From a virus (lineage: Duplodnaviria > Caudoviricetes), in the IMG/VR virus record IMGVR_UViG_3300023202_000273, positions 1 through 55,443 of that record: a stretch of 55,443 bases of DNA; one strand, given 5' to 3'. Both the position numbers and the translations under genes were made by a program. Numbering within the stretch: the first letter of the stretch is position 1; each line of letters starts with the position of its first letter. The notes beneath the pieces were generated by a model. It did no database searches, had not been told where the DNA came from, and saw only the letters and a list, made by a program, of their open reading frames with translations. Shown here piece after piece: positions 409 through 55,443 of the stretch.

Positions 409-1150
409 ACCAAAACCTCCCCTGCGATGGCTCGAACGTGTCTGCCAGATCGATGTGCCTGTCAGCATTCAGCCACCGGCGGAACGAATAAACTCGACGG
501 CATGACCCCATGGCACGACCCAAATACGCTGCCCACCACGCAAATGAGCTGTTTGATATTATCAGGTTCTCGTACGTCATCAGCCGGCGAAAATCATGCT
601 TGGCATCCCCGGACACATCAACAATGTCCGCGCTTACCATCCCGCGCAATTCTTTCACCCACCTCTGATCGATTTCGTTGCCAATCATTTCGACCTGCGA
701 AAACCCGGTCCGGTTAATAATGTCGGCGTACCACTGCGGATGTATAATGCTGCCGCCTTCGCCGACCTGAGCGTAGTCCTCGTGGCGCACCGCAATACCC
801 AAAATGCTGGCCACTGGCTCAGGCTGCGGAACCCGTACGTATTTGAGGATCCGCGACTCCTCTGCAAGGTAGTACCGCGCATGCTGCCAATAGCCGGTCA
901 GAACAACTGGTCGCCGCCCGTGATGTTGCCGGTGATACATGATAGGGCGATAACCGTCGCGGCCCTCATCGATTTTTATGGGACGCCCAGAGTATTCGGC
1001 CCCAGCCCGATTGCCAATGGATTCGATCATGTTACGGTGTACCCAGGGCGTGGTCAGCGCCACCCCCTGGTACTCCGAAAACAATCTCCCATAGATGTAC
1101 TGGAACAGATTGTTGCCAAAACGGCCTCCATAAACGAATGAAACCGTCAT
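401..1150 (-). CDS. GT11 alpha-1,2-fucosyltransferase-like glycosyltransferase
   Basis: GGRFGNNLFQY, GYWQ, AVRHEDY (variant of HVRRGDY) and IISNSSFAWWAAYL motifs. Confidence 0.85.
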   Translation of the reverse strand: MTVSFVYGGRFGNNLFQYIYGRLFSEYQGVALTTPWVHRNMIESIGNRAGAEYSGRPIKIDEGRDGYRPIMYHRQHHGRRPVVLTGYWQHARYYLAEESRILKYVRVPQPEPVASILGIAVRHEDYAQVGEGGSIIHPQWYADIINRTGFSQVEMIGNEIDQRWVKELRGMVSADIVDVSGDAKHDFRRLMTYENLIISNSSFAWWAAYLGRAMGSCRRVYSFRRWLNADRHIDLADTFEPSQGRFWCE

Positions 1151-1296
1151 TTTTTGGCAATCCCCTGACGCAGGAAAATCATTCCCAGCCCACCGAGGAT
1201 TGTCTGCATACCTGCTTCAGTGTCGCCGCCGACAATAAGTGTGACGCCGAACCCGACCGCTCCGAGACCGGTCCAGAATGTTTTTGATTTCCACAT
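1147..1296 (-). CDS. Small membrane protein, holin candidate (49 aa, not in the ORF track)
   Basis: MWKSKTFWTGLGAVGFGVTLIVGGDTEAGMQTILGGLGMIFLRQGIAKK. AAGGAG RBS, ATGA overlap with GT11, two hydrophobic segments and a basic tail. Confidence 0.65.
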   Translation of the reverse strand: MWKSKTFWTGLGAVGFGVTLIVGGDTEAGMQTILGGLGMIFLRQGIAKK

Positions 1297-1376
1297 TTTT
1301 TACTCCTTTGGTGAAAGTTAAACTTGTGCCGTTATGTTAATATATTACATTTTAATGTTATGCATTCGCTCGATAA

Positions 1377-1403
1377 CATAAATTCGGAATTTCCGAATTT
1401 ATG
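1377..1403. repeat. Perfect 13-bp inverted repeat
   Basis: CATAAATTCGGAA-T-TTCCGAATTTATG. Confidence 0.9.
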
Positions 1404-1454
1404 GCAACGATTGACACTATCCGAAGTTTTAATTTTTGATAGTGTCTGTTGTAC
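1402..1454 (-). other. attC-like site E
   Basis: Minus strand: GTACAAC-A-GACACTATC...GATAGTGTC-AATC-GTTGCCA, with perfect 9-bp arms. Confidence 0.6.
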
Positions 1455-1545
1455 GCTGTAACCGCAAAGCACATAGTAGCGTATGTTTTTCCCAAAGTTC
1501 ATAGGCTTGATTCTCAATTTTATTTTTATTACCTGTAACATACAG

Positions 1546-1935
1546 TCAGAGTTTGTGAAAATTGCGTAATTCTCGCAATGTCTCTTCTAACCTATTGCAT
1601 CTGCCAACGAGAGCGTCGAATTCGTTTGCATCTACCCAATTTTTGTTCTGATAAAACAACATATAATATTTTTTTCGGTATGTACGCTGTGCTAACTCAG
1701 TCCCACTTGTAATTACGGTGTCTTTATGATCGCATTGCGTGCTACCGCTGTTGTTTGTCTGTGGCTTGGCGCTCTCCTTGTATTGGGGCCACCGCACGAC
1801 CCATTGATACCAACCAACCATAATTCGCAAACCATAGCTGTGAGCAATAAAGCCAATCTGGAACCACCGATACCCTACCGACAACGATGCATAGTTTTGC
1901 TCACCACAACAATACTTAGATTTTGTTACTGCCAT
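1546..1935 (-). CDS. Cassette-borne hypothetical protein (MAVTKSKYCC...), probably a fusion across a decayed attC
   Basis: ATG at 1935 after GGGGG. The ORF reads through the attC-like hairpin at 1658-1756. Confidence 0.55.
   Translation of the reverse strand: MAVTKSKYCCGEQNYASLSVGYRWFQIGFIAHSYGLRIMVGWYQWVVRWPQYKESAKPQTNNSGSTQCDHKDTVITSGTELAQRTYRKKYYMLFYQNKNWVDANEFDALVGRCNRLEETLRELRNFHKL
1658..1756 (-). other. Degenerate attC-like site D
   Basis: AAACAAC-A-GCGGTAGCACGCAATGC...GCACAGCGTACATACCG, followed by an A-run where N5-GTT is expected. Confidence 0.55.
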
Positions 1936-1969
1936 TGTGCCCCCTATAATATGACCGCCAAGCCATTGC

Positions 1970-2041
1970 GCATAACGTTTGAGCAATGGTGAAGTACGAT
2001 TAGCATTTGCCGTAGGCCGAAGCACCATTGCTTTGTTGTGT
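1970..2041 (-). other. attC-like site B
   Basis: ACACAAC-AA-AGCAATGGTG...CACCATTGCT-CAAAC-GTTATGC, with perfect 10-bp arms. Confidence 0.7.
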
Positions 2042-2064
2042 GCCGTTGTAAATCGCCTTCCGCA

Positions 2065-2343
2065 TTATTCCTGCGCGGCGATCTTCTGATTTACATTCTG
2101 AGCTCTGACCAAAAACACTCCGTCATACATACCAACGGCTCCGGGAAAATTTCGTAAATCTTCGCTTAGGGCATGACAGGGAACCCAAGCTTTCTCATCA
2201 AACTCAAGTCCGTCTGGATTTGCTATCGCTTTATAGCCTTCACTTGTAAGCAAGAACGTTGGATTCTGCACACCAAAACCACGGAGGACTCTCCCGTAGT
2301 CAGCGATCACTTTCATCATTTTTGTTTCTGTTTTCATTCGCAT
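2065..2343 (-). CDS. Inner-cassette hypothetical protein (MRMKTETK...AAQE)
   Basis: GAGGAG RBS before ATG 2343. Bounded by ATTATAGGCGCGGCGA and TCGCCGCGCAGGAATAAT. Confidence 0.65.
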   Translation of the reverse strand: MRMKTETKMMKVIADYGRVLRGFGVQNPTFLLTSEGYKAIANPDGLEFDEKAWVPCHALSEDLRNFPGAVGMYDGVFLVRAQNVNQKIAAQE

Positions 2344-2558
2344 TTTGTTTTTCTCCTCGCCGCGCCTATAATAAGCTGGGCCTGTTGGCTGTTGCAAGTT
2401 TGCGACTTCCATCCATCCATAATGTTTGCGGGCGTTTCCTCGATCCATCCACAACCGCCACTATCCGGCAAACAAACCCACGGGCCACACCGCTGCATAC
2501 CAACACCATTATCAACAAAATCAGCTTCGCACTTGGTACCACACTTTGGACACTGCAT
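2334..2558 (-). CDS. Inner-cassette zinc-ribbon protein (MQCPKCG...)
   Basis: AAAGGA RBS; CPKC...C-x6-C pattern. Confidence 0.6.
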   Translation of the reverse strand: MQCPKCGTKCEADFVDNGVGMQRCGPWVCLPDSGGCGWIEETPANIMDGWKSQTCNSQQAQLIIGAARRKTKCE

Positions 2559-2613
2559 ATTGTTCCTTTCTTGCGCCCGCCTATAATTTCCAAAAGGCGA
2601 GCAATTTCCACCA

Positions 2614-2743
2614 ACGTAACGGTTTGCAAAATGTATGCTGTGCTCACTGCGGCACCTCCATGCCACAATCTTTGCAGACGTGATACGGCCCATCCGATAG
2701 GTCTTGGTGTCGGTGTAAGCATGGCATACTTTTGCTGTTGTGT
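2614..2743 (-). other. attC-like site A
   Basis: ACACAAC-A-GCAAAAGTATGCCATGC...GCACAGCATACATTTTGC-AAACC-GTT. The arms pair with one extrahelical base. Confidence 0.7.
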
Positions 2744-2943
2744 GCTGTTTGGTTTTGCTCCGCGTTTTCCTGCTCGGCCTCTGCTTCACACTGCGCGGCA
2801 TACGCTTCTTGTTCCGCTTGAGCTTCTGCGTCCATTGCAGCAACATATTTTTCTTCCACCAGTTTAATACCACGAGTAGCACAGAACTCTACCAAGGCAA
2901 GATAATCTTGCCCTTTATCTGAACCGATTACTATAACCTGCAC
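2644..2943 (-). CDS. First-cassette hypothetical protein (acidic helix plus C-terminal CxH/CxxC)
   Basis: GGAGG RBS and GTG at 2943. The C-terminus is encoded inside attC A. Confidence 0.6.
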   Translation of the reverse strand: MQVIVIGSDKGQDYLALVEFCATRGIKLVEEKYVAAMDAEAQAEQEAYAAQCEAEAEQENAEQNQTAHNSKSMPCLHRHQDLSDGPYHVCKDCGMEVPQ

Positions 2944-2972
2944 AAAACCTCCAAAGAGAAAATTATTTACAC

Positions 2973-2990
2973 CAACGTACACATCACGAA
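2973..2990 (-). other. Putative attI-like array entry site, copy 1
   Basis: TTCGTGATGTGTACGTTG, 17/18 identical to 18015-18032. Confidence 0.6.
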
Positions 2991-2991
2991 C

Positions 2992-3369
2992 CTAATATCC
3001 CCACATGACAACCGCATCAGATTGACGATTGTCGAGGTGGACAAACCGGTTGTCCTTGTACCCGATCCCGCGGAACCCGACCTCGATCGCGCACCTGATA
3101 AGGTTGCCCTCATGTTGGGGGTGAGACTGTGGATGCACGCAAACGACGTCAAAGCCGCAGACGTCGCCCCTGCACAGATGCTTGCTGTCCGGTGCACCGC
3201 CAACGGATGTGTTGTGGTCTGGGCATCGTGCTGCACTGGTCACGATCAGAGGCACATCCATGATCAGCCGCACCGTGTACAGCATCTCGACGGCTCTCTC
3301 CGGCGGCATCAGGCCGCACCCGCATTTGCATTCGAGTTCACTGTTTTTGAAATACTCTTTGACTAACAT
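2992..3369 (-). CDS. Peptidase M15 (Zn D-Ala-D-Ala carboxypeptidase-like) endolysin
   Basis: YFKNSELECKCGCG, SAARCPDHN, SKH...FDV and FVHLD motifs. Confidence 0.85.
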   Translation of the reverse strand: MLVKEYFKNSELECKCGCGLMPPERAVEMLYTVRLIMDVPLIVTSAARCPDHNTSVGGAPDSKHLCRGDVCGFDVVCVHPQSHPQHEGNLIRCAIEVGFRGIGYKDNRFVHLDNRQSDAVVMWGY

Positions 3370-3370
3370 T

Positions 3371-4126
3371 TTATCCCTCGGTTGTTTGCCGGTCTGCCCC
3401 CGGAAGGCGCAACCGCGGAGCCATGGCCCTTATGTGCATCTCCTCGGATTTTTGGCGATCGCTCCTGATTACGTGCTCGCTGTATCCGTTAGGGCAATAT
3501 ACGTATATTGGATCCGGAATGTGCCACACTCGATCAAACCCGGCCAGCTCAACGATTTGGTACATCAGCGCCATATCTCCGGCGGCCTCTATCCAGTCGC
3601 GCCCACAATGCATGTAGCTGTCCTGATTGATATGCGGCCATAGTGACGCCCTGAATGTTTTAAGGTGGCTTGTTGTCCAGTTTTGCCGTCGCACTGGGGT
3701 ATCTGATGCCAGCGGACCATTGTATCGGCCATACCTGCCATCCTCAGACTCGTACGACCCGTATGTCGCCATGATCTCGGGATGCTGAAGGTAAGTTTCC
3801 CTGACCACCCACAGAGCATGGTCGTGTAGGTAGTCATCCATGTCCACTATAACGACGATCTCATCGTCTGATGCCCCCTGCATGACCTCGCACACATTGC
3901 GCAGCAGCCCGCGGTAACCGGTCACGAAATCGCAGGTGCGATTGCGCCGGGCATCCAGCTTTGACTCATCAGCGCAGTCGATGTTAACATAATGGTGAAA
4001 TTTGTTGTACGTCTGTCGACTCACGCTGTCGCAGCATCGAGCCATTTTGGCCCGGTCGTGCCGCCCTGCAGAAATTACTCGAAAATGCACTATGACCTCC
4101 CGTGTCCTGTCGATAATATAATGCAA
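3371..4126 (-). CDS. GT2-family glycosyltransferase
   Basis: SVSRQTY, VIVDMDDYL, SHLKTFR and AGDMAL motifs. Confidence 0.8.
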   Translation of the reverse strand: MHYIIDRTREVIVHFRVISAGRHDRAKMARCCDSVSRQTYNKFHHYVNIDCADESKLDARRNRTCDFVTGYRGLLRNVCEVMQGASDDEIVVIVDMDDYLHDHALWVVRETYLQHPEIMATYGSYESEDGRYGRYNGPLASDTPVRRQNWTTSHLKTFRASLWPHINQDSYMHCGRDWIEAAGDMALMYQIVELAGFDRVWHIPDPIYVYCPNGYSEHVIRSDRQKSEEMHIRAMAPRLRLPGADRQTTEG

Positions 4127-5430: not shown

Positions 5431-7509
5431 TTAAATCTCCGTATCAACCAGTCCCGCATTAGCTGCAGTGATACCAGTATTTTTTCCAGTTTTTTCACTC
5501 CGTAGCCTTTCTCTCAATTTTGTTTTTTCCGGGCTGTAAGGCTTTACCGCCTCTGGCCCGAACAGCTCCTGCATGTCCTGCAATTGTGTGACAACGTGAC
5601 ATAGGCCAATCGCCAGAGGATACCCCGGCACCGGTTTGCGGTTTTGGATATACCACTCCCGGAGCTGTCGATCGTGCTCCTCGCAGCTATAGTGTACTTT
5701 TATCCTTTTTTCGGCGAATAGCTTTTGCGTCAGCATTACCCCGCCTGCGTCGTTGTGCTTGGGGTTGCGCTTTGGCCGCACACCGGTCTTGCGCATCTGC
5801 CTGACCATATCCTGCATGCCCGAAAACAGTGTATGGTTGCCGATGATCATCCCAACGTACGGGCTGCTCTGCTGTGGCGATAACGACACCTGGGCGTGCG
5901 TCCTGATAGTGTGGGCCAGCTCATGCGGAGTCGGGGTCGGGTGCACTGACTCGGCGTATATCCTCAACTCACGGCGCCGTTTGCTCCAGTAATAATGCCC
6001 GCAATGGAGACTGTTGTCCGGCTCCCGTATAATCGTCACGAATACCATCACGTTTGCCGGCTTTACCCGGTCCCACGCGATGTCCGCACCGTACCGCATG
6101 TCGACATCCGTCGAGATGTACGTCGGCCATACACGCTCGACTTCGGTTTTGCTCGTAAATGCCAGCACCAGCGAGTCCGCCCTGTCCGGCGACTGACCGT
6201 ACTCTTTTTTGTAATCACTCTTTGGCAATATCCGGTCGCGACCCTTGCTGTCCACGCCAAATTTGCGGCTGGACAACTCCTCAGCCAGATAATCACTGTC
6301 CTCGTCATTTGGTAGCTGGATATACGGCATGGCATCTCTCAGCTCTGCCCACATCGTGGTTATGTTGTCGTGGTAGTCCTCAGTCCCCGCAGCACCGAAC
6401 GTGACCGGCACCACCCGGATATTGTCGTCACGGTTGCGCTGCAGGGCGTCCACAACACCTGCGCCGTATCCCCCGGTCGCATCTATTTTGATGTCTACCC
6501 GGTGACGCGACATGGTCCTCAGACGGTATTTGCGCAGCTCTTGCTTTATAAGCTCTACCGTCTGATCGGTATCTGACCGATCGAGGTGCGCCTGTGGGTA
6601 CACATGATTGCCGATACGCGTAGTTACTACAGTCAGATCGTCTCCAAACCGGGCACAGTCAACTCCCATTTCTAACCGCCCGCTCTCTTCAACCTCTCGG
6701 TGACGTGCCGCCTCGACTGCGGCGAGCGATATAAAAGCATCGGGGTTGCCCTTGGGAGCCATCCCGAGCACGCGCACACGATAAATGTCGCTCGATTTGC
6801 CGTATCTGCGAGCGATGCGATAGCAGTACTCCTTTTTGACCAGCGGGCTCGTCTCCGAGCTAAATCTCAGATTTTTCCAAAACTCCTTGTCGCGGTTGAA
6901 CGTGTCATGCACGTAACCGATGATCGTCGTGTGCTGACCGGCTATCAGGATCCGGTTGTCCTCCTCGGTCAGCGACCCCTCGATCGTCTCCCACACCAGC
7001 GGATCGGTGATCCCAAACGCCTCGTCGACTATCCACAGTAGGTGCGTGGCGTGAAAACCCTGAACATTGTCCGGCTTTTTTGGCGATCGCGCCCGGATAT
7101 GGTTGCTGGTTTTTTGTCCTTTGACATATATCTCATCAGCCCCTGTGTGATACATCGATGCCAGCCGACTCATCGGGATCCACCGCTTAAACTCCGGCCA
7201 CAAGATATCGTACAGTTGATGGTACGTCGGCGCCAAGCACGGCACCTTGACCAGATGCCCCAGCGTATTGCGGCGTGTCGTCGTATACCACATACCGATC
7301 CATGCTTTCGCAGTAGACTTACCACTGCCGTGACCGCTCTCACACGACACGCGGTTGTACTGCGCGATCGCATTCGCCATCGATTTCTGGTCTGCAGTCA
7401 TCTCCAAGCCATGGATGTATTTACGCGCAGGCCAGATGATCTGGTCACTGATAAACTCCACCGGGCGGTCATGGTAGTAGCAAAGCGCGTCAGCGTCCAG
7501 CAGGGCCAT
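5431..7509 (-). CDS. terL: Terminase large subunit with C-terminal extension
   Basis: Walker A SGHGSGKST, Walker B IVDEA, nuclease motifs GVDCARFGDD, IDATG and SPDRADS. Confidence 0.92.
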   Translation of the reverse strand: MALLDADALCYYHDRPVEFISDQIIWPARKYIHGLEMTADQKSMANAIAQYNRVSCESGHGSGKSTAKAWIGMWYTTTRRNTLGHLVKVPCLAPTYHQLYDILWPEFKRWIPMSRLASMYHTGADEIYVKGQKTSNHIRARSPKKPDNVQGFHATHLLWIVDEAFGITDPLVWETIEGSLTEEDNRILIAGQHTTIIGYVHDTFNRDKEFWKNLRFSSETSPLVKKEYCYRIARRYGKSSDIYRVRVLGMAPKGNPDAFISLAAVEAARHREVEESGRLEMGVDCARFGDDLTVVTTRIGNHVYPQAHLDRSDTDQTVELIKQELRKYRLRTMSRHRVDIKIDATGGYGAGVVDALQRNRDDNIRVVPVTFGAAGTEDYHDNITTMWAELRDAMPYIQLPNDEDSDYLAEELSSRKFGVDSKGRDRILPKSDYKKEYGQSPDRADSLVLAFTSKTEVERVWPTYISTDVDMRYGADIAWDRVKPANVMVFVTIIREPDNSLHCGHYYWSKRRRELRIYAESVHPTPTPHELAHTIRTHAQVSLSPQQSSPYVGMIIGNHTLFSGMQDMVRQMRKTGVRPKRNPKHNDAGGVMLTQKLFAEKRIKVHYSCEEHDRQLREWYIQNRKPVPGYPLAIGLCHVVTQLQDMQELFGPEAVKPYSPEKTKLRERLRSEKTGKNTGITAANAGLVDTEI

Positions 7510-18014: not shown

Positions 18015-18032
18015 TTCGTGATGCGTACGTTG
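18015..18032 (+). other. Putative attI-like array entry site, copy 2
   Basis: TTCGTGATGCGTACGTTG. Confidence 0.6.
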
Positions 18033-18068
18033 TAGTCAATTAACCTAAAACATTGTAGGAGCGCAAAA

Positions 18069-18305
18069 ATGTATAAATGTAATGAATGCGGTGGGTTTCT
18101 TGAGGAGTTGGGTGATATGGCGGTGTCAGACGGTGGGTGCGTTTGCGCTCAGAAAAAAGCTGAGGAATCGGCTAACAGCCTACAACTGCTAAAGACTGAA
18201 ATTGCTCTTACTGTTAGCTCTATCGCAAGGGACACTTCTATTCCAGCGGTTGATCGGCTTGATAAAATTGTGATGTTTGTATACGAGCAACTATCATCCG
18301 TTTAG
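18069..18305 (+). CDS. Cassette-borne small Cys-containing protein
   Basis: AGGAG RBS; CNEC...CVC. The C-terminal half is encoded by the attC-like site. Confidence 0.65.
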   Translation: MYKCNECGGFLEELGDMAVSDGGCVCAQKKAEESANSLQLLKTEIALTVSSIARDTSIPAVDRLDKIVMFVYEQLSSV

Positions 18306-18318
18306 CGGGACGTTAGGT
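18180..18318 (+). other. attC-like site
   Basis: CTACAAC-T-GCTAAA...TTGCTC / GAGCAA...TTTAGC-GGGAC-GTTAGGT. CTACAAC is the exact complement of the cassette start GTTGTAG (18029-18035). Confidence 0.75.
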
Positions 18319-18323
18319 GAAAT

Positions 18324-18914
18324 ATGAAAAACTATGGAATTATAGGCGCGGATAAGACGGCGCGTCCTGTGCCGAAAATGCACAGAGCGTGGGCCATGCC
18401 TAACAGCCTCACGTTCAGTATCAAGCCTATCCGAGAGTTGATTGGCAGCGTCATTGTTGATTGTTTGAATGTTTGCGATCCATTCGTGCGCAATAGTCCG
18501 TTTAAAGCCCGGTGCGTGTCAAATGATTTAGACACAAGTGTTGAGGCGGATTTTCACATGGATGCACTCGATTTTCTCCGGTCGCGTTCCACCGCCGAGT
18601 TTGATGCGTTGCTATTCGACCCCCCGTATTCTCCGCGTCAAGTTTCGGAATGTTATAAGCGCATGGGCTTATCAGTCAACATGGCGACCACACAGGCATC
18701 GTTCTGGTCGAATCTCAAGCGGGAAATTCAGCGGGTCGTTATGCCGGGTGGGGTAGTTATTACGTGCGGCTGGAACAGCGGCGGCATCGGTAAAAAATAC
18801 GGGTTTGCCATAGAGCAGATTTTACTTGTCGCCCACGGAGGCTGGCACAACGATACTATTTGCACCGTCGAAAGGCGGCGCACGTCCTGTGCGCAAGAAT
18901 CCGCGCAGGAATAA
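18324..18914 (+). CDS. Amino (N6-adenine-type) DNA methyltransferase
   Basis: DPF, NDL, DALDFL, FDPPYS and HGGWHNDTICTVE motifs. Confidence 0.85.
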   Translation: MKNYGIIGADKTARPVPKMHRAWAMPNSLTFSIKPIRELIGSVIVDCLNVCDPFVRNSPFKARCVSNDLDTSVEADFHMDALDFLRSRSTAEFDALLFDPPYSPRQVSECYKRMGLSVNMATTQASFWSNLKREIQRVVMPGGVVITCGWNSGGIGKKYGFAIEQILLVAHGGWHNDTICTVERRRTSCAQESAQE

Positions 18915-19290: not shown

Positions 19291-22200
19291 CTATTCTTCG
19301 GATGATCCCAGAATGCGTTTGTTGTACTGCCGGTTAAGGTTATCTGTGAGCTTCTCTATGTTTTCGTCAATGTTTTTGACGGCGTCCATATCGTTGTGCT
19401 CATATGCTGCCCGCCGGCGCTTTTTTTGCTCCCTGATCTTGCTCTCGATTCCAGATACGATCGATCTTCCCTTGCTCGGTTTTCTTGTCATGATCAAAGC
19501 CTGACGATTGCGCTTCCCGAATGCCTCGGCTTTTTTGCGCTCGCCGTTTGCAACGAGATTGTCATACTCAGCCCGGATCCGTTTTAGCTCTACCAGTCTA
19601 TCATACATGAGCGATTGATCATACCAGCTCTCGATCTCTCCATAATACCTGCGGACAATAGGCACATTTCGCGGCGCCGGTGCTTTTTTTGATACGGCGT
19701 TGTTTAGCAGATTTACAGACCGCTCAATGGTTTTCCCGACCCCGCCGGTCATGTATTCATACACGTACTCAACGCCCTCCGGGGATATGTCCAGTAAACC
19801 ATGCCGGTATTCGCTCCCGCCGGTCAGTTCATTGAGAGCCTGCAAAGGCTTGGTGTACACATCAGGTGTCGTCGCCTTGGCCGAATGTGCGCGGGATTTC
19901 TCGGGTCCGAATTTTTGCTCCAGCCATATGTCACGGCCGATAAAGTTTTTGTTGAGACCCAAGTCAACCATGAGGCGACCAGCCGTCGGGGTAACGGTCT
20001 GCAATAGCGTGCTGGCTGATCCGATGGGAGAAAATGTTGCTGCCGCGGTCGTGAGCAGCCCTTTAGTGGCATCTGCCAGTTTCCGGCGGTTGTGCACACC
20101 ATGGTCAATGGCCTGTCCGATCGCCCAAAACAAATTGTACCCGTACGGCAGCGGTATTTTTGCGTAACGACCATTAGTCATCGGGATAATAAAATTGTGG
20201 GCTTTTTCCCATGCCGGTATTTTATCATAATGATTCATCTCATCGTCATCGTCTCCCATCACCATCCTGGACAACTGCGCCATTGCGAGCGACCCAACCA
20301 CGGCGGCTCCTGCAATTGCCTGCACTCGGGGGTTGCGCATGGCCTGCAGCATACGGATGTTGCCCTGTATCGAGGCATTGGAAAACACATAAAGCGCGTT
20401 AACCATCGTTCCAAGCTCGCCCTTTTTATTAAAATTGACAGTAATCCCCTTTGCGATTGCGGCCGACTTCGCCTTCGAGACACCCATCTCACGCATCGCC
20501 CGGTAAACCGACAAGCGAGACGCGTTCTCAACCGCTGAATTCAACCGGCTGACGTAATCACCGGCGCTCCGATACATGCGTTTAATCGATGTCACATTTC
20601 CGGGCTCCAGCATTTCAACCGATTTGATGAGGCGCTTCTGTATATCGTCGACTTCGTTCAGTCCAAAAAACCCGATCCGGCCGCCAGCCTCGTCGAATTC
20701 CTTGTACCATTTTGCCCACCCTCCGCGCATATCTCCGCCCTGTGCCCTATAGGCGCCCTTGATAGACCCCGGGATACCCCGGATGGTTTTTATGACCGCC
20801 TTAGCAGCCTCAGCATTGTCGAGACCTTCCAGGCCTCCAACATTGGCAATGGCGGTCTGCACGTCCCTGGTTAGATTCGTCAAAACGAACTCAGGATTCA
20901 ACTGCGTGTTTATCGCCGCGATGTACCGGTTCCACTGTGCCGACATCTGCAGGATCTTATTCGCCCGGTCTGCCCCCAGGTTAACCATGGCCCGAGCCAG
21001 AGCCGGATCATTTATCCGGATATGGTGCTCAACCCCGTCACGCTTAACAACCATCACATTATCGTCAATTTTTGTATCGACAACCTCCTCAACCTCACCA
21101 GTAACCGGGTTGAGGCGGCGTGTCATCTGCGGAGTATCAACATCCCACAGATTAACGGTGCGGTATTTGCCGTTCTCTTTTATGCGAGTTTTTACACCCT
21201 GGTTTTGGGTGGCATAGTCCAAAAACGATTGCCCGACCCGGTTTTTCTCAGCCCTGACTATGGCGTCGGATAACTGTGTGATCGAATTCGCAATGATATT
21301 TTCGGCCATCGAGCGCCGTCCCAATGCCCGCTTAGACTCCGGGCCCCGAATGGAAAAACCTCTTCCAATGCCTCCGCCACGAGTGCTGGATACATATTTC
21401 GTGGGGTATATCCCACGCTGGTCAAGATCGCGCTCGGCTTTCTGAGCGTCCCCCTTGTATTTTTTCAGCGCCTTTTCATGCTCTACGACATAATCGTCAT
21501 CCTCATATAGTGATATCCCACGCAGCGGGACATAGTTCTCGTAGTTCTCCCACGCCGCAAGCGTCTCTTCGCTTATGTTGCCTGCATCGGAGAGTATTTT
21601 TCGTGTGCGGCGGTTGATGTCATAAACCATCTCGGCGAGGCGGTCGTACTGTGCCTGTTTACCAGACTCACGGACCTGCTGCAAAATATTTTCGGCGTCC
21701 GCGTCACTCATGCCTGACCCGCTGGACATATCAGGATTTATCTCTGCGATCGCCTCGTTGCGTTCCTGTGCATGCCGAGCATACAGGTACGTCTCTAAAT
21801 CATGCATCGGTATCCCGTAGCTGTGTATGCGCTTAACCAATGGGTCAACAATGGTCCGATTGATGTCGTCCACCTGCGAGGCGACTTTACCATGCATGAT
21901 AGTCTGCTGCAACATCGCGTCCTGGGCTTCATTGGCCGGCGGGATGTATTTCTGGATCTCCTCGAGTCGGGAAAATTTTTCAACAACCTTGCGGGTAAGA
22001 TACCCCTTGTACGTCTCCATGGGCACCCACCTGACCGGAGCAGTGCGCTCCTCGGTCATGGTTTTGCGCTGGAACATCGGCTGTCCGTCCATGTCGCGCA
22101 TCCGGTCATTAACTACAACCGTAAACTGTGGGCCATTCCCAAGGTCGATTGTCGTGGTCTCAGCGCCAAACTGTTTTTTAACGTACTTCTTTGTCCACGT

Positions 22201-25200
22201 CGGAAGCTTTTTGTCATACAGATTAACAGCCCACTCCGGAGGTGGAGAATCCTTGATCTCTTCCTCCGTCAAATTCTTGTTGTCTTTGGCCAGCAGTTTC
22301 TCTGTCAAATCCTTGCCAATGTATTTCGGCAGCTCTGACTCAGGCACTGTCACATTGATCGGAGTATCCTGTCCGACTCTTATTGCAGTCAGTTCGTTGG
22401 TCTCCGGGTTGTACTTAATCCCCGTAATGTCAAGACCATACATGTCCTGAACTGTTTTTGAATTCGGGAATGACACGTACTCTTTGTCAGCCCCGTCGGC
22501 CAATGCACGCTTTACACCTAACTCCATCCAGTTGTTTGCAAAGGGGAAGTCTTCGACCACTTTGTCTTTTAAGCGCATGTCATCCCGCGTAGCCATTTCT
22601 GACCGGGCATAGAGATCTGCATCAATCTCAAACTCCTCGCGATTCATCTTTTTATGCCAGTCATCCCCGTACTTGTCGCGCATCTTGTCGCGGTAATCTT
22701 TGAGATCCTCCTCAGCCTTCTCGATCTTTCTCAGAGACTCAGCCTTCTTTTTATCGAACAACTTATGCTCCCGCAGCTCTTTCGCCCAGTCGCTCTGTAC
22801 CTCCTCGACATTGAGCACATTGCTGACGATGGCTTTGCCATCAAACCCTCGGGCGCGAGCATAATGTTCAGCCTCAGCCTCAGTGACGGCACCCTTCCTG
22901 ACAGCCACATCAGGGCCGCCAGATCCAACAGAGGCAGAGGATTTCGCTCCAACAGCTTTGGCTATCCGGGAGGCAATATCAACAATATTTGGGTAATGTT
23001 TTCTCTCAGTGGTCCTAATGTGGACAATGACATCTCCCTCTACCCAGTGGATTTCGGGTGGCGTGTAGCTGTATGGCCCCTCTGCGGTCAATAATGTCTC
23101 GCTGTAGTTCTCATACTTTCCAGGGGCGACATAGTCCTCGTGCAGTGCAGCGTAATCGCGGTCTTCGTCAATGTTCGCCCACTCTAAAGCGTCCTCAAGA
23201 GTGCCCTGAAAATCAGTCATTGTTTGATAATCGTCATCATCGATCATGTGCTCGGAAGTTATGGCCAAAGTATTATCATTAACATAATCAACCTCAAAGC
23301 CCTGATCATCCGCCCACGCCTCTAAAAGCCTAATCCCGGACCGCTTGTCAACCGTCCCTATGCGTAGGTTTTTCTTATTTTCGTGCAACTGGTTGAGCAA
23401 AGATGTTTTTGTCGTATCAGGGTTTTTTTCAAGATACTCAGATAGGCCAAGCGCGTCTATCTCAGATTGCTTAAGTCTCCCTTTTTTTATCATGCCCTTT
23501 ACAACATCGGCCACGCCTTTTTCCTGTGGGATGGCCTCGATTGCGGCGATGAGATCGGATTTCCATTTGCGCAGGTTGCGTAAGTACGTCGGCTGCGATA
23601 TATCAACGGGCGTTTTGACGGTGCTGAATTCAGAGTTCAGATCAGACAGGCTGCCCGTGAATTTTTCCAGGTTCTCCTTGCTGTCAGACGCGGCGTACCC
23701 CTTGAAGTTTCCGGAATCCCAGTACTGCGCCACATGGCCGAAATTGTCACGCAGCATATTCTCGAACTGTTCCGCCGATACCTGGTTTTTGTGCATCCCG
23801 ACCAAGACTTCTTCGGATTTTTCCGCCAGCTCTTTTTCGTCATAGTACTGGTCTTTAAACAAGTCCTTCTTGGCCTCGTTCTCAGCCCACTGGGCATCGT
23901 CATCGCTTTCCCGATAAAATTTCTCTTCGAATAGTGCCACACCGTCAGGTTTTAACACCTCTTTCACCTGCCCGATGTGCGTACCGCGATCATTAGAGAT
24001 GAACTGGAATGTCATCCCCTCGTGAGCGTAGTCAAATTTTTCTCCCGGGGAAAACGGCTCAACGACTGTGCCGTCTGGATCTGTCCATCCCTCTCCGAAT
24101 GGAGCATTGACAAACGTCGCCCCAGGAGCCTGTGGCTGATCCATGAATGTCTGCTCCATGGAATTGTTGGGGTCAACCGAAACCGTCTGGATTTTACCGT
24201 CTGATGCCGACGATATCGCTTTGCCCCACGATCCCTCAGATGCGCCTATGTCAACAACTCTGCCTGAGCCGAGGGATTTGACAATGGCATCTGCAACAGC
24301 CGGCTGGACCTCAAAGTATCCCGGGATGGATGTAGCGATGTGGCGATCGAAGTTTCCGATGTACTTTTTGCGGGTGTCCTGCAACGCTTTGGCAGGCTGA
24401 CCGAGATTAATGACAGGAGAGTACCCCCTCCAATTGGGGGTCCCCCTCCTGCCCTCAGTAACAGATGCGAAAAATTTATTAGATTTTAGAAATGTATCGC
24501 GCTTATCAGGTCCATCTTTTCTTTGGTCATCGGACCGCTCATAATCCGCTCGTACTCGGCCTCGGCCTTCAAGACCCTCTGCTTCAGCGGCGAATCCGGC
24601 CCGTTCTTGACCTTCTCGTACGCCTCCTTCGACGACGGGAACGGCTCTTTTTCTTGAGTAGGCTGGCCCTCCCCAGCGGTCTCGGTAGCTTTCGACGACT
24701 GCGGATATCTTCGGACTGAGAATCCCGTCAAGCCTTCTTTGTAGATCGGGGAATCCGGCGGCTCGTGCCTCACTGATATAATCCTGCCCATGTGGCCTTC
24801 CTTTCCAGTTTTCGTGCTCCGGCATGTCTCCCTCAGAGAAAAACCTCCCGATAGAGATATCGCCGGACACCGTATTTGAGATTATTTCTTCTGCCCCTTT
24901 GTACCAAGGGGTTTGGTTGTCCCCCTCGAATCGTACAATCCTGACCCCTCCCGGCGTCGGAATAACGCCGATCTTCTCCTCTGGCTTTCTGACTGCCCGC
25001 TCAAGAGCCTCCATCTCGGCGGGGGTAACGTCGCGGCCTAATTTAACCCATATCCCGTTTGCCGCTCTCTTGGATCGCCCAGGTAGCGGCATGTGCCACC
25101 CTACACCATCCTGGCGCAGGAAATATCCGTACATCGATGCTGCAGCGTTGAGCTGGTTTTTCGTGCCCTTGTCAACGCCTTGGTTAAACATCATCGGCGC

Positions 25201-28200
25201 AATAACCTGCGACGATGGATTTGATTTGTACTGCCATGATCCAGGCAGTACATACTCACCAACCTCTGGCAGCCCAACCGCTTTTAGTATTTCGCTCTGG
25301 CCATTCTCATCGTTGATCGCCTGCATGATAGCGTGATGAAACTGCAGCCGCTCATCATATGGCGCATCATGTATCCCCGGCAGCAAATCAACCTGCGAAC
25401 TCGGTGTTGCCTCCCACGACAATTGCCCAGACTGGGTGGTGATAAAATCCTTAAATGACCCACCGGCATCAACTCTGTCGCCAGATCTCTTTATAACATT
25501 GAACATCTGGCTCTGAAACCACCGGTTTGATTCCGGCGACATCTCCAGATTGCCCTTTTTATTGCGAACATACTCTATCTTGCCCTGCTTTTTTCCTCGC
25601 GATACGATGGCGGGCGCCTTCGCTTCCCATTTTGTCTTAGCGGCGGTCCATACCGCTGCTTGGACCTGCTGGATCTCAACGCCTTTTTCGTCGGCCAGAT
25701 CCCTGACCATTTCCTCCATTAATGTATACTGGGCATCTGTGGGAGTGTCTTTCAAATACCCAAAAGCCCGAGTCATCCACACATCAATCGTTGCACCCTG
25801 GTCTATGGCCGGGTCGACCTCAACCAATAGGTTATTCCGAAAATTTCGGACCTTGCGACCCTTCAGCAATTCGTTGCTGGTGATATCTCCAGACATGTAT
25901 GCAATCAAAGGCGGCTCGTTTTTGTTGGGGTAACGACCGAGTTTCAGATCCACATCGGTATCACCCCTCGCATCAGCAGACTGCCACCGCCGGAATGCCT
26001 CCATCGCCTGGGATGCATTTTCAGCAACGCCGTTTTGTGGAGACAGGTACGCCAGTACCGACGCGAGCCGCTCCGCATACTCCTCATCCCCGCCAGAAAT
26101 ATCTTTGATCACCTGAGAGCTTTCCTCGTACCACCCCTTCGCTGGCTCTCCCTCATTATATAATTTCCGGATATGACCCCGGAGTTTTTTCATGTCCTCA
26201 ATTTTGGCCACGCTCGGCGGTGCCACTGTGACCTTTCCGGCCTTTGTAACGTGCGGCTGTACCTTCCCGCGGACCCTACGCATATGTTGCGGGGCTTCTC
26301 CACCATCGCTCAGGTCTTGGCGCTGCGCACCTTCTTGATCGCCTTCTGGTACGACTCGTTCCGAGCGACTCTGAGCGCGACCTTCAGCGCGTGGCTTTGA
26401 CTTACCTTCCGGGGCTTTTCGTACTTCATCTGCATACCGCTCTCCTCTGATAAATGTCTGCTGTCGGCCAGAATCTTTGGCTTTGTATAGCTGTTTGTCG
26501 GCTTCCTCAATGTTTTCCCCAATTCCCGCTGAAAACGTAATGCCGGTCAGCCCATCGCCAAAGTCAACTTCTTTCAATGCCTCCCGGGCAACCTCAATCT
26601 TTGGCGCAAGGCTCTCAGCCGTAACACCTTCATTTGGGATAATCGCAAACTCCTCGCCGCCCAGCCTGACAACACTCGCATCATTGCCAAACGTGTTGGA
26701 GAGAATACCACCGAAGGCTTTAAGTACATCGTCGCCTTTCCCGTGCCCGTAGGTATCATTGACACCCTTAAAGTGGTCGATGTCAAATATCGCAGTCGGA
26801 CGATCGATTCCCCCATCCTCATTGGCGATGCCCTCATCCTTCAAATACTCGCGGTTGTTCAAACCAGTGAGACGGTCCTTATGGGCCTTATCCCTCCACG
26901 CAGACACCGTCTTCTCTATGGCATCAACCGACTCGTCAGATGCAGACCTAAGACCATCCTCGATGGCCTTTGCGTCACGGCCTGTAACCTTGGACATCTC
27001 CTTTGCCAGATCAGCTCTTTTATTAATATAATCAATGTTAGACGGTTTGTCAACCCCTTTGTCTGACCCTTCGCTCTTTGCTCTCTCTTCAATGTCAGCA
27101 TACTGCTGGTATTTAATCTCTCTTTTGCGCAGTATCTCCTGTTTATCATCGCCGACGTCAAGCTCTATGTTGGTGTCGAGATCGGGCAGGCGCAACGATA
27201 TCCCTGGCCGCTTATCTTTGTCTCCAATTTTCAGGCCCGGGCGCTGCCGCTCTGACGGAACGCCCTCGGGGATAGCTTCCTTAGCAACGGCTTTTAGTGT
27301 GGCAATGTCTTTCTCATCGCCGAGATACTCAGTATCCGCAAGCTCTGGCTGTTCAACATCATCCGGCTTCTTCTTACGCATATGGTCGGCGGATCCTGTC
27401 TGATCGATGTCAGCCGGTTTCTTATCACGCAGGCTTTTTATCAATCCACGCATTACGTTGCGTGTTCTCGCCTGCTTGTCGCCCATTATCCCTTTGATCC
27501 AGTCGTGTATCTGGCTCCCAAGCCGCGCCAAATCACCCTTGCCGGACTCGTCCGTCAAAAACTCTGCCCCGGCGTCAGCGACGAACTCTTTGAATATCAC
27601 GCGGTCCTTCGCGTCCTCAACCGCCTTCTCTACGCCCTCTGTATTCTCGTTCCCCTCGTTACGGGATCGGACAAGTTCTTCCATCAACTTTATGTCCTCT
27701 TTGTACTCCTGGACCTTTTCCTTGTACTCGTCGGTCTTCTTGTACTCGTCGTAGGCCTCTTGGGCATTCCTGTACACTTCTTCACCAGACTCATAGGCTG
27801 CGTAGTGTGTAAACTCATGTGCGAGTACTTCGCCCACATTGTGGGGGGCAACCGATGGTGAAATAACGATCTCGTGCGCATCCTCTCCTTGCAAAAACAC
27901 ACCCGCGCCCGGTAGCTGTTGGCGCCTACCTTCATGCACAAAACTATCTGCAACCTTTATCTTTAACGGAGTCGCATCCTTGCCCATTTTTTTCTTGACA
28001 TCATCGGCGAAATTCTGCGCCTCATGAAATACCTCTATTTCGCGCCGGCGCATAACCTCGGCCCCGGTCTTTGACCCCAATCCCTTAACAGCTTCACCTT
28101 TCCTCTTTATCGTCTCAATGTCGGCCTCATCTTCAGGGTCGTACTCAACATCAACCTGCCCCTCCCCAGTCTGCTCAATCATTGTACGAACCGATCCGGG

Positions 28201-54948: not shown

Positions 54949-55424
54949 AGGAACGCCGCCAATCTTTTGCTGTGAATATGCATGTTGACCAGCGGGTATT
55001 TGATCTCCCCCTGCTTAACGTACCACGGAGTGACATGTATCTGCCTTTTTTGGATCATGCGGTGTATCTCATGGTGGACGGTGTCGAGAAACCCTGGGTT
55101 TGGATCGCTCGGTGTGCCGCCCAGATACTGTCCGTACGATGCTGGATCAAATACGTATTGCGCCTGACCCGGTAGCGTAGGAAGATATTTTTTGCGGGAC
55201 ATCGTGGACACCACCGTCATCTCACTGGGGTGGCGCATCCGCTCCGCCCGAGCATCTGCCTCCGCTGTAAAGTCACGCATCGAGCCATAATCGCTGATGT
55301 ACATGATGCCGAGCGAGTCGTACGTCTCCGCAACCCCCAGCATCTCATTGTACCGATAGTACGGCAGGTTGCGCTGCGGTTCCCCGTGGTGCCACACCGG
55401 GCTGTGTCCATCAAAAAAACTCAT
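54945..55424 (-). CDS. 3' part of the origin-spanning glycosyltransferase-like gene (joins 1-408)
   Basis: In frame with 1-408 across the circular join; FDPASYGQYLGG...NMHIHSK C-terminus. Confidence 0.65.
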   Translation of the reverse strand: MSFFDGHSPVWHHGEPQRNLPYYRYNEMLGVAETYDSLGIMYISDYGSMRDFTAEADARAERMRHPSEMTVVSTMSRKKYLPTLPGQAQYVFDPASYGQYLGGTPSDPNPGFLDTVHHEIHRMIQKRQIHVTPWYVKQGEIKYPLVNMHIHSKRLAAFL

Positions 55425-55443
55425 CGGCCTGTTGATGATCGTG
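55317..55443. repeat. Terminal 127-bp direct repeat, right copy
   Basis: Identical to 1-127. Confidence 0.95.

Follow-up and report, generated by a model that had tools for sequence, protein, structure and literature searches.

A probable array of integron-like gene cassettes in a virus genome and the family of folded AAC/GTT sites to which it is assigned

The complete virus record IMGVR_UViG_3300023202_000273 (Duplodnaviria; Caudoviricetes), a genome of 55,443 bp with direct terminal repeats that was analyzed at its full length and is called the window here, carries an island of small genes next to its endolysin gene. The island, at positions 1397-2976, is probably (we would put it at about 0.6) an array of three units holding four genes that belongs to a family of phage-borne, integron-like cassettes. 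The means by which virulent phages acquire and exchange the small accessory genes of their variable regions have long been in question, and integron-type exchange has so far been linked with bacterial IntI enzymes and canonical attC sites. Taken over the whole family, the sequences strongly support the idea of cassettes, that is, units bounded by AAC and GTT, unit ends that would pair with each other in a circle, and gene content that changes at GTT. The evidence for the same reading from the window alone is modest.

A preliminary description of this DNA had placed hairpins of one design at 2614-2743, 1970-2041 and 1402-1454, and these proved to be real. A strict descriptor, in which ACAAC and CGTT enclose a stem of 8 bp or more with no more than one bulge, set off by up to 3 nt on the left and 1-5 nt on the right, matched both strands of the 55,443 bp at these three places only, all of them on the minus strand in the island. 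In addition, a covariance model, R1, was built from 28 aligned short-loop elements of other phages, none of them taken from the window. Applied to the window genome, the model returned exactly four matches at E ≤ 10. Three of them were the island hairpins, here called element 1 (30.1 bits, E = 1.4e-8), element 2 (36.0 bits, E = 7.5e-11) and element 3 (31.5 bits, E = 3.9e-9), and the fourth lay at 18179-18323 on the plus strand.

Such hairpins could be accidental features of A/T-rich intergenic DNA. Their folding energies, compared with those of 200 shuffled sequences each, gave z values of -1.97, -1.53 and -2.50, with 6, 15 and 2 shuffles folding equally well, and taken alone are unremarkable. 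Moreover, a loose version of the design (AAC, an 8-bp stem and GTT) occurs 14 times in the genome, seven times on each strand. Both results favor chance and to that extent speak against an array. They are opposed by the E values of 1e-7 to 8e-11 obtained with a model made on other phages, and by a search of related loci, described below, in which 59 elements were found against 0-1 in shuffled sequence. An accidental origin is thus refuted for the three main hairpins, and its probability as an account of the island is close to nil. It still stands for two supposed decayed copies at 1658-1756 and about 1537-1651, which gave z values of -0.18 and -1.33, had no R1 match and lie within the open reading frame (ORF) at 1546-1935; these do not survive as elements.

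The first relative was the contig L009 (L-numbers are labels of other contigs or records that bear elements or were scanned for them), which has about 40% G+C and a terminase 48% identical to that of the window. Both arms of hairpin 1 (23 and 20 nt) recur unchanged in L009, where the loop between them has diverged, and further sites of the same design occur there in two runs of small genes. All of its sites end in ACGTTG-N4-(A/C)AAT, often with TTATAGG about 29 nt past the G. Because CAAC was found, by eye, in all three reading frames in L009, the motif is under no coding constraint.

IMG/VR was scanned with the pattern ACGTTG-N4-AAAT-N15-19-TTATAGG, which gave 60 stretches. The family descriptor applied to the loci requires the left motif and the stem and is independent of this right-end pattern. 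With it, 59 elements were located in 25 of the 67 sources (set 1; 658 kb of loci), and 20 dinucleotide shuffles of the same loci gave 0-1 each, with five 1s. A second scan with CAAT in place of AAAT gave 42 stretches and 36 new loci, 20 of which contained 51 elements; one 213-kb genome alone holds 12. After de-duplication the whole family comprises 104 distinct elements from 41 sources.

The elements share a common layout, C-NNN-CAAC, 1-2 nt, a stem that usually has one extrahelical G or A, a variable loop, 4-5 nt and GTTG-NNNN-MAAT, where M is A or C. The left spacer is 1-2 nt long in 100 of the 104 elements and the right spacer 4-5 nt long in 89. Stems measure 8-13 bp and the distance from AAC to GTT is 38-167 nt. 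A bulge, mostly a G or an A at 5-6 nt from the base of the stem, is present on the 3' arm in 73 elements and on the 5' arm in 8, and 23 have none. In 80 of the elements an ORF runs into the element and stops within it, TTATAG follows at +24 to +40 in 45, and the median spacing from junction to junction is 363 nt. In the 28-element alignment each of the four R-box pairs is preserved in 27 or all 28 sequences, these motifs being required by the descriptor itself; mean column identity is 49%, with 10 invariant columns.

The G+C content of 24 arrays was 0.455 (standard deviation 0.039) compared with 0.25-0.58 in the flanking phage DNA, and this composition agrees with a shared pool of units. When the ORFs of the loci were clustered, only NinB/Orf and methyltransferases recurred, NinB in 6 element-bearing records. 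Within some loops lies a further mini-ORF that has a ribosome site of its own, such as one for a 27-aa hydrophobic peptide in L009 (1663-1745, minus strand). Many short loops carry AAAGCC, and in many the 3' arm is directly preceded by ACTTC or GCAC. The variable bases of the junctions fall into a few recurring types, among them GTTGTAAG, GTTGGTGG, GTTGTTTG and GTTAGGC/TG, and these types may serve as compatibility groups.

A probe for one subfamily run over 185,579 species genomes gave 19 matches, of which 18 were due to chance (10 of them in one conserved Vibrio gene). The single true element was in L119, a contig of 19,668 nt assigned to a metagenome-assembled genome (MAG) of 'Candidatus Paceibacterota'. 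L119 carries the same elements as the equally long IMG/VR phage contig L015, and could be either a mis-binned phage contig or a hint of the host. The elements had no Rfam match better than E = 0.37. No published description of the family was found in a literature search whose scope left out most subscription journals.

The behavior of the units was assessed from their ends. The four variable nucleotides before CAAC were compared with the unit's own upstream junction, with the adjacent downstream junction and with random junctions. In set 1 (n = 57) the mean number of matches out of four was 2.79 to the unit's own junction, 1.68 to the adjacent one and 1.56 to random ones. The unit's own start was the better match in 36 cases and the worse in 6, with 15 ties (sign test, p = 1.4e-6), and all four bases matched the own junction in 23 cases and the adjacent one in none. 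The independent replicate, set 2 (n = 39), gave means of 2.51, 2.05 and 1.66, with 22 cases better, 11 worse and 6 tied (sign test, p = 0.04).

That unit starts complement their own ends had been claimed for the island itself. The claim is borne out at the level of the family (36 against 6, and 22 against 11), but in the window alone the variable bases match, by eye, at only 0/4 (3/4 with one bulged G), 1/4 and 3/4 positions. GTTGGTG, one of the starts that had been singled out, pairs with CACACAAC if one G is bulged out and does not pair otherwise. The 10-nt pair TGGCTTGGCG and CGCCAAGCCA is indeed present as a repeat, but one arm lies inside the ORF of the 129-aa protein, and about 0.3 such pairs would be expected in the island by chance, a figure that is our own estimate rather than the output of a program.

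Break points were taken from blastn alignments between different records. Of 397 alignment ends near elements, 38 fell at -8 to +3 of GTT, compared with a mean of 5.8 and a maximum of 13 for random positions. Alignment ends that begin at GTT and extend downstream numbered 27; the other classes were hairpin only (19), from the ORF through the hairpin to GTT (2) and ending at AAC (4). No alignment crossed a junction with at least 40 nt on both sides of it. Furthermore, in 10 pairs that have the same leader behind different hairpins the spacer was shared in 0/10, which shows that similarity begins at GTT. A whole unit, from ..AAAC|GTTGTGC.. to the end of its own hairpin, is common to L041 and L031/L012 at 97% identity over 449 nt, and its flanks are unrelated. 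The break points and the shared unit together indicate that the hairpin travels with the ORF upstream of it and that crossover would take place at the 3' GTT of the coding strand. The expectation that gene content in related phages changes at G|TT was thus confirmed, at a resolution of a few nucleotides and not of the exact bond.

Metagenome contigs gave a similar picture for element 1. Five of 20 matches to its 3' arm were true copies with identical arms. Their loops differ, yet encode in frame a ..NSKSMP(or T)C..CxxC.. tail, and the spacers and the motifs that follow differ too. Run X3 contains a contig that matches only 2604-2731, within element 1, with unlike flanks; another contig of that run matches 2973-3379, with an endolysin about 95% identical (about 20 differences), and similarity is lost inside junction 1. 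The gap seen at 2619-2805 in run X4 was discarded as evidence. A 24-mer spanning endolysin and junction had no match in the metagenome scan.

The elements might alternatively be structures that act purely at the level of RNA, either as processing sites or by pairing of the 5' and 3' parts of messages, and the modular homology would then be ordinary phage mosaicism. The elements are intergenic, all lie on the coding strand within an array, and in 80 of 104 the stop codon falls within the stem-loop, as this explanation would have it. However, homology that starts at GTT and never crosses the junction is a property of DNA, and, as given above, no Rfam family matches. If TTATAG marked the start of transcripts, GTTG-NNNN would presumably fall outside the message, and an 8-bp pairing over 200-1600 nt is weak as an RNA structure. 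A function confined to RNA is accordingly quite improbable.

A regulatory role is another alternative, in which the sites would be modules akin to the promoter-early stem-loops (PeSLs) of T4-type phages, reportedly treated by Arbiol et al. in 2010 as well. The stem-loop would end or process the upstream message and be followed by a promoter and a ribosome site. Shuffling of genes would be a by-product of homologous or illegitimate recombination at short cores, carried out by the phage's own genes. The passages of Comeau et al. (2014; PMC4122927) that deal with PeSLs describe well-conserved promoter and terminator sequences, and an order of stem-loop, conserved box, about 17 nt, A/T-rich hexamer like TTATAG, ribosome site and start codon that is also that of the phage units. 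The spacing of about 29 nt between GTT and TTATAG is, by eye, constant in several units, and TTATAG accompanies 45 of the 104 elements. Genes for NinB/Orf, NinG/Rap, an exonuclease and SSB are present in this phage, and NinB recurs in the 6 element-bearing records mentioned above. One site resembling a sigma-70 promoter, TTGCAA-18-TATTAT, precedes the gene of the 92-aa protein.

Against a regulatory role, a sigma-70 scan of 1100-3100 found the island no richer in promoter-like sites than expected (3 sites against 3.5, one of them before a unit gene), with a consensus that may not be that of the host. The stems have, by eye, no T-run after them, and loops of up to 167 nt that contain coding sequence are unlike those of terminators. 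Only about 5 + 12 nt are conserved and the stems are diverse, which is too little for homologous exchange; a mean column identity of 49% among 28 elements is likewise unlike that of near-identical repeats. Regulation also gives no reason for a unit's start to complement its own end. TTATAGG was itself tried as a promoter; it gained no support from the sigma-70 scan and is coding sequence in the methyltransferase units. For these reasons a PeSL-like role is regarded as unlikely.

The window genome had no match to the tyrosine recombinase family PF00589 at E ≤ 1, in agreement with the preliminary description. Nor did it match the serine recombinase family PF00239, or, at E ≤ 1, the Y1 (HUH) transposase family PF01797 that would mark an element of the IS200/IS605 type. 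Among the 41 other element-bearing records, a PF00589 protein was found in two, L065 and L068. In both, the recombinase gene lies directly upstream of the array and in the same direction, and is followed by the junction AGTA|GTTG-N4-MAAT. The variable bases of this junction in L065 match the end of the first unit at 4/4 positions, and the array of L068 continues across the ends of the record. The two proteins are 26% identical to each other. Their best model is of the Xer type, with 175 and 166 bits (cut-off 220). The integron-integrase model TIGR02249 reached 114 and 142 bits, short of its cut-off of 265, and matched each protein in two separate stretches; by these scores the enzymes appear to be Xer-like and not IntI. 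A search with the L068 protein found only itself, and the clustering of ORFs of the loci revealed no recombinase shared near arrays.

Family membership, unit structure, break points and the sharing of units between phages were observed directly; the recombination itself, its circular intermediate, its folded single-stranded substrate and its enzyme are inferred. On the coding strand a unit runs from G|TTG-NNNN-MAAT through a short leader, in which TTATAG often stands at about 29 nt, and one small ORF, sometimes two, to a folded site made of C-NNN-CAAC, 1-2 nt, an imperfect stem-loop that usually holds the stop codon of the ORF, and a 4-5-nt spacer. By the proposed mechanism the unit would first be excised as a circle, in which its own TTG-NNN-G could pair with its own C-NNN-CAA and so complete a short helix beside the stem. 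A tyrosine recombinase acting on the folded single strand would then exchange strands at GTT, and array heads and other junctions would in this way gain, lose or swap units. Since this phage encodes no such enzyme, it would act in trans and might come from the host or from a co-infecting phage with an Xer-like recombinase at its array head.

Several results weigh against the cassette reading. In set 1, 42 of the 67 sources contained no element, and many of the pattern matches are due to chance; the loci were found through the family's own right-end patterns, so that their number is no guide to its prevalence. The stems covary in the 28-element alignment, and this is partly built in, since the descriptor demands a stem. 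Complementarity of unit ends is only marginally significant in set 2, where the adjacent junction also exceeds the random ones (2.05 against 1.66), and it is weak in the window, as described above. The left AAC is enriched for alignment ends as well (24 against 5.5 expected), and hairpins can therefore be shared without either neighboring gene. Identity between the L041 and L031 units extends 7 nt beyond the 3' GTT of the unit. No recombination joints were found in the four runs holding the island, all consisting of contigs from one study, one of which may be the source; rare circles are not visible in contigs. Tyrosine recombinases are absent from 39 of the 41 related records and from this complete genome. 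That both of the two recombinases found adjoin arrays is suggestive, the pattern having been spotted after the fact, and the two could be ordinary phage integrases that lie beside accessory genes by chance.

The recurrence of the site in dozens of unrelated uncultivated phages points to a shared and swappable gene pool. A fuller interpretation, which we hold only tentatively and at somewhat less than even odds, is that the family is a phage-specific counterpart of integrons, with a mirror-image folded site, a leader of its own, and its own lineage of Xer-like recombinases, which a minority of the phages would encode and the others would use in trans on a common pool. It would extend over unrelated phages of 40-220 kb and 25-58% G+C, and its cargo would consist of zinc-ribbon proteins, DNA methyltransferases and uncharacterized ORFs.

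The family provides a searchable site with a working covariance model and clear unit boundaries, as well as two candidate recombinases, from L065 and L068, and the array head as a candidate site of insertion. With a defined site, boundaries and candidate enzymes, exchange of cassettes from phage to phage becomes testable at the bench and can be surveyed in viromes. The mirror geometry, if real, would also be informative about the choice of strand and polarity that tyrosine recombinases make on folded DNA. Neither Pfam and PHROGs nor two Atlas look-ups offered anything usable on the function of the cargo; because it consists of short proteins common to many phages, it is a natural place to seek counter-defense functions.

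The features of the island, of its flanks and of a second, smaller array are listed in the table.

Table. Features of the two arrays and of the genes beside them in the window
Feature	Position	Strand	Details
M15 endolysin	2992-3369	-	Pfam Peptidase_M15_3, E = 5.5e-13; PHROG endolysin
Array-head motif TTCGTGATGTGTAC	2977-2990	-	14-mer right after the endolysin stop codon, directly 5' of the first GTT junction
Junction 1, lone R'-like motif GTTGGTGTAAAT	2965-2976	-	No preceding hairpin; start of unit 1
Unit 1 gene, 99 aa	2644-2943	-	Start by eye, GTG at 2943 after GGAGG; no Pfam match
Element 1	2604-2744	-	CACACAAC-A, 12-bp stem with extrahelical A, 85-nt coding loop, spacer, GTTGGTGGAAAT
Junction 2, GTTGGTGGAAAT	2604-2615	-	Right end of element 1
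Leader motif TTATAGG	2580-2586	-	29 nt past the junction G; more copies at 2365-2371 and 1943-1949
Unit 2 first gene, 64 aa, zinc-ribbon-like	2366-2558	-	phrog_6115 (unknown function), E = 1.1e-7
Possible truncated element	2364-2392	-	By eye; left half-site CAGCCAAC-A-GGCCC.. running into TTATTATAGGCG, no 3' arm
Unit 2 second gene, 92 aa	2065-2343	-	No Pfam or PHROG match
Element 2	1965-2042	-	CACACAAC-AA, 10-bp stem, 31-nt loop ending in ACTTC, CAAAC, GTTATGCGCAAT
Junction 3, GTTATGCGCAAT	1965-1976	-	Right end of element 2
Unit 3 gene, 129 aa	1546-1935	-	Start by eye, ATG at 1935 after GGGGG; no family match
Element 3	1397-1455	-	CGTACAAC-A, 9-bp stem, 16-nt loop ending in ACTTC, AATC, GTTGCCATAAAT
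Junction 4, GTTGCCATAAAT	1397-1408	-	Final junction of array 1
49-aa hydrophobic ORF	1147-1296	-	No family match; backbone resumes here after junction 4
Second, smaller array	18015-18323	+	Head TTCGTGATGCGTAC, junction, zinc-ribbon ORF, element, junction GTTAGGTGAAAT
Second-array junction GTTGTAGTCAAT	18029-18040	+	After head motif TTCGTGATGCGTAC
Second-array element	18179-18323	+	Model R1, 27.6 bits, E = 1.3e-7
DNA methyltransferase gene	18324-18914	+	After the second array; phrog_11619, E = 8e-47

The head motif of the first array is attI-like solely by its position, and recurs with one change as the head of the second array (18015-18028). The C-terminal tail of the unit 1 protein, ..NSKSMPC..CxxC.., is encoded within hairpin 1 and is in frame in L009 and in the five metagenome copies. 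TTATTATAGGCG, into which the possible truncated element runs, was also found within loops of intact elements of L061 and L062, and model R1 gave no match at 2364-2392; unit 2 is perhaps a fusion of two units at this site. The nearest Atlas clusters of the 92-aa protein are viral hypothetical proteins at 0.88, which is a lead only, and the Atlas search with the 129-aa protein of unit 3 gave no usable match. TTATAGG has five copies in the genome, three of them within the island and all three on the minus strand. The first ~70 nt of the methyltransferase gene after the second array match methyltransferase units of L021 and L068. Past the last unit gene, 250 nt of non-coding DNA include near-perfect palindromes at 1370-1410 and 1413-1446 (minus strand). 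The latter is the stem of element 3; the former contains ..AAATTCGGAAATTCCGAATTT...

The island had been described as an AT-rich run of short genes between the endolysin and a holin-like gene. It does hold four short ORFs on the minus strand, and its G+C content is 0.45 compared with 0.525 in the remainder of the genome. Every gene around it is on the minus strand, and the order of transcription is terminase (5431-7509), a GNAT-like gene, two glycosyltransferase-like genes, the M15 endolysin, the island, the 49-aa ORF and a GT11-like gene. The genome encodes a terminase, a portal protein and a major head protein, together with a replication initiator, a primase-helicase, SSB, NinG/Rap, NinB/Orf, an exonuclease, a DUF932 protein and a DNA methyltransferase. 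Its terminal direct repeat is 127 bp long, 1-127 and 55317-55443 being 100% identical.

The ORF at 19291-29751 (minus strand; 3486 aa) was at first read as a virion RNA polymerase of the N4 type. Pfam placed LPD38, GGDEF (diguanylate cyclase) and DUF7178 in it, and the idea of phage-polymerase promoters in an N4-like genome was dropped once it proved to be a large polyvalent protein. A tandem duplication of ~150 nt with 98% identity lies at 33241-33550 within the ORF 31299-34103 (934 aa; no family match). The terminase large subunit of L009 (9977-13045) has 1022 aa and contains an insert of ~330 aa that looks intein-like and is missing from the 692-aa protein of the window.

Neither the island nor two other arrays had a DNA match among 50,697 deposited phages, and a search of viral contigs with the glycosyltransferase gave no relatives. 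With the terminase, used as a single sequence or as an alignment, only three relatives were found among viral contigs; those of the endolysin were at 35-45% identity only and all lacked the array.

The preliminary description had taken the elements for integron attC sites served by a borrowed host IntI. They would then be a cluster of attC sites lacking an integrase (CALIN). According to the main text of Qi et al. (2023; PMC9892861), virulent phages carry attC clusters without an integrase, and IntI1 recombined 5 of 6 sites tested. The features in common with such sites are many, namely AAC/GTT inverse cores, an imperfect stem, a variable loop, crossover at GTT, self-complementary ends and methyltransferase cargo. 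CAAC...GTT(G/A) is present in all three island sites and at 18179-18323, these motifs being required by the descriptor. An IntI with its specific insertion beside an attI site, as in a complete integron, was not found in the window.

The details of the sites do not fit canonical attC. By eye, the R'' motifs of the window (ACACAAC, ACACAAC and GTACAAC) have one mismatch each to RYYYAAC, and the R' motifs have two (GTTGGTG), one (GTTATGC) and three (GTTGCCA) mismatches to GTTRRRY, so that the consensus is missed at 1-3 positions in each case; that of the family is C-NNN-CAAC / GTTG-NNN-G. The spacers are 1-2 and 4-5 nt long, compared with 3 and 3 nt in the three attC sites of TJE1, which carry their bulge on the coding strand's 5' arm, whereas it is on the 3' arm in 73 of the 104 elements. 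Of elements 1-3 in the window, the first bears an extra A on its 3' arm and the other two are without a bulge. IntI is described in passages of PMC3053210 as binding the bottom strand and reading the extrahelical bases, and a canonical IntI would by our reasoning be directed to the opposite end of the phage elements.

Qi et al. report 17 phages with attC clusters in all; the family model had no match in the four named in the main text (TJE1, P12002L, H101 and MW202573), yet the same type of search recovers 41 of 42 family records. The array-side recombinases are Xer-like, at 114 and 142 bits against the integron-integrase cut-off of 265, and the subfamily probe of 185,579 species genomes found no true element beyond the copy of a phage contig in the MAG. 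Ordinary attC sites mobilized by a host IntI are therefore improbable, and the borrowed IntI is not supported, given the opposite arm of the bulge, the asymmetric spacers, the failure of the model on attC phages and the Xer-like recombinases. What remains of the claim that this phage carries integron-like cassettes are the units bounded by AAC and GTT, the self-pairing ends and the changes at GTT; identity with canonical attC does not.

As in integrons, gene-sized units in one orientation each end in a folded imperfect palindrome with AAC and GTT. The loop is variable, an extrahelical base is present, breaks fall at GTT and each unit begins with bases complementary to its own inverse core. Small ORFs of unknown function and DNA methyltransferases make up the cargo, and most arrays lack a recombinase gene. 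Unlike attC, the phage elements have their extrahelical base on the opposite arm relative to crossover and gene, and usually only one, in place of the T-N6-G pair of attC given in PMC3053210. Since crossover keeps its side and the bulge changes arms, the site is a mirror image of canonical attC. Its spacers are asymmetric, and the MAAT extension and the TTATAG leader are absent from attC. The units are very short in comparison with those of integrons, with the median junction spacing of 363 nt, and the adjoining recombinases, where present, are Xer-like and co-directional with the array, not IntI.

Xer recombination on folded single strands is known from CTX-type phages, and dif modules are known from Acinetobacter plasmids. 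The phage arrays would resemble these systems in depending on a host-supplied Xer-type recombinase that acts on short or folded single-stranded sites, and in carrying accessory genes in small modules. The phage units are co-directional with one hairpin each, in contrast to dif modules, which are flanked by pairs of 28-bp duplex Xer sites of alternating orientation, each with XerC and XerD arms around a 6-bp centre.

With PeSLs the arrays share a location on phages, in variable regions of small ORFs, and the succession of stem-loop, conserved box, ribosome site and start codon. Genes are proposed, in the part of PMC4122927 concerned with their movement, to travel as mini-circles in phages without a dedicated integrase. 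The stems of the phage elements differ from one another in sequence, unlike those of PeSLs, and no sigma-70 promoter is evident. Moreover, their variable ends are self-complementary, and this indicates, unlike for PeSLs, a site-specific mechanism.

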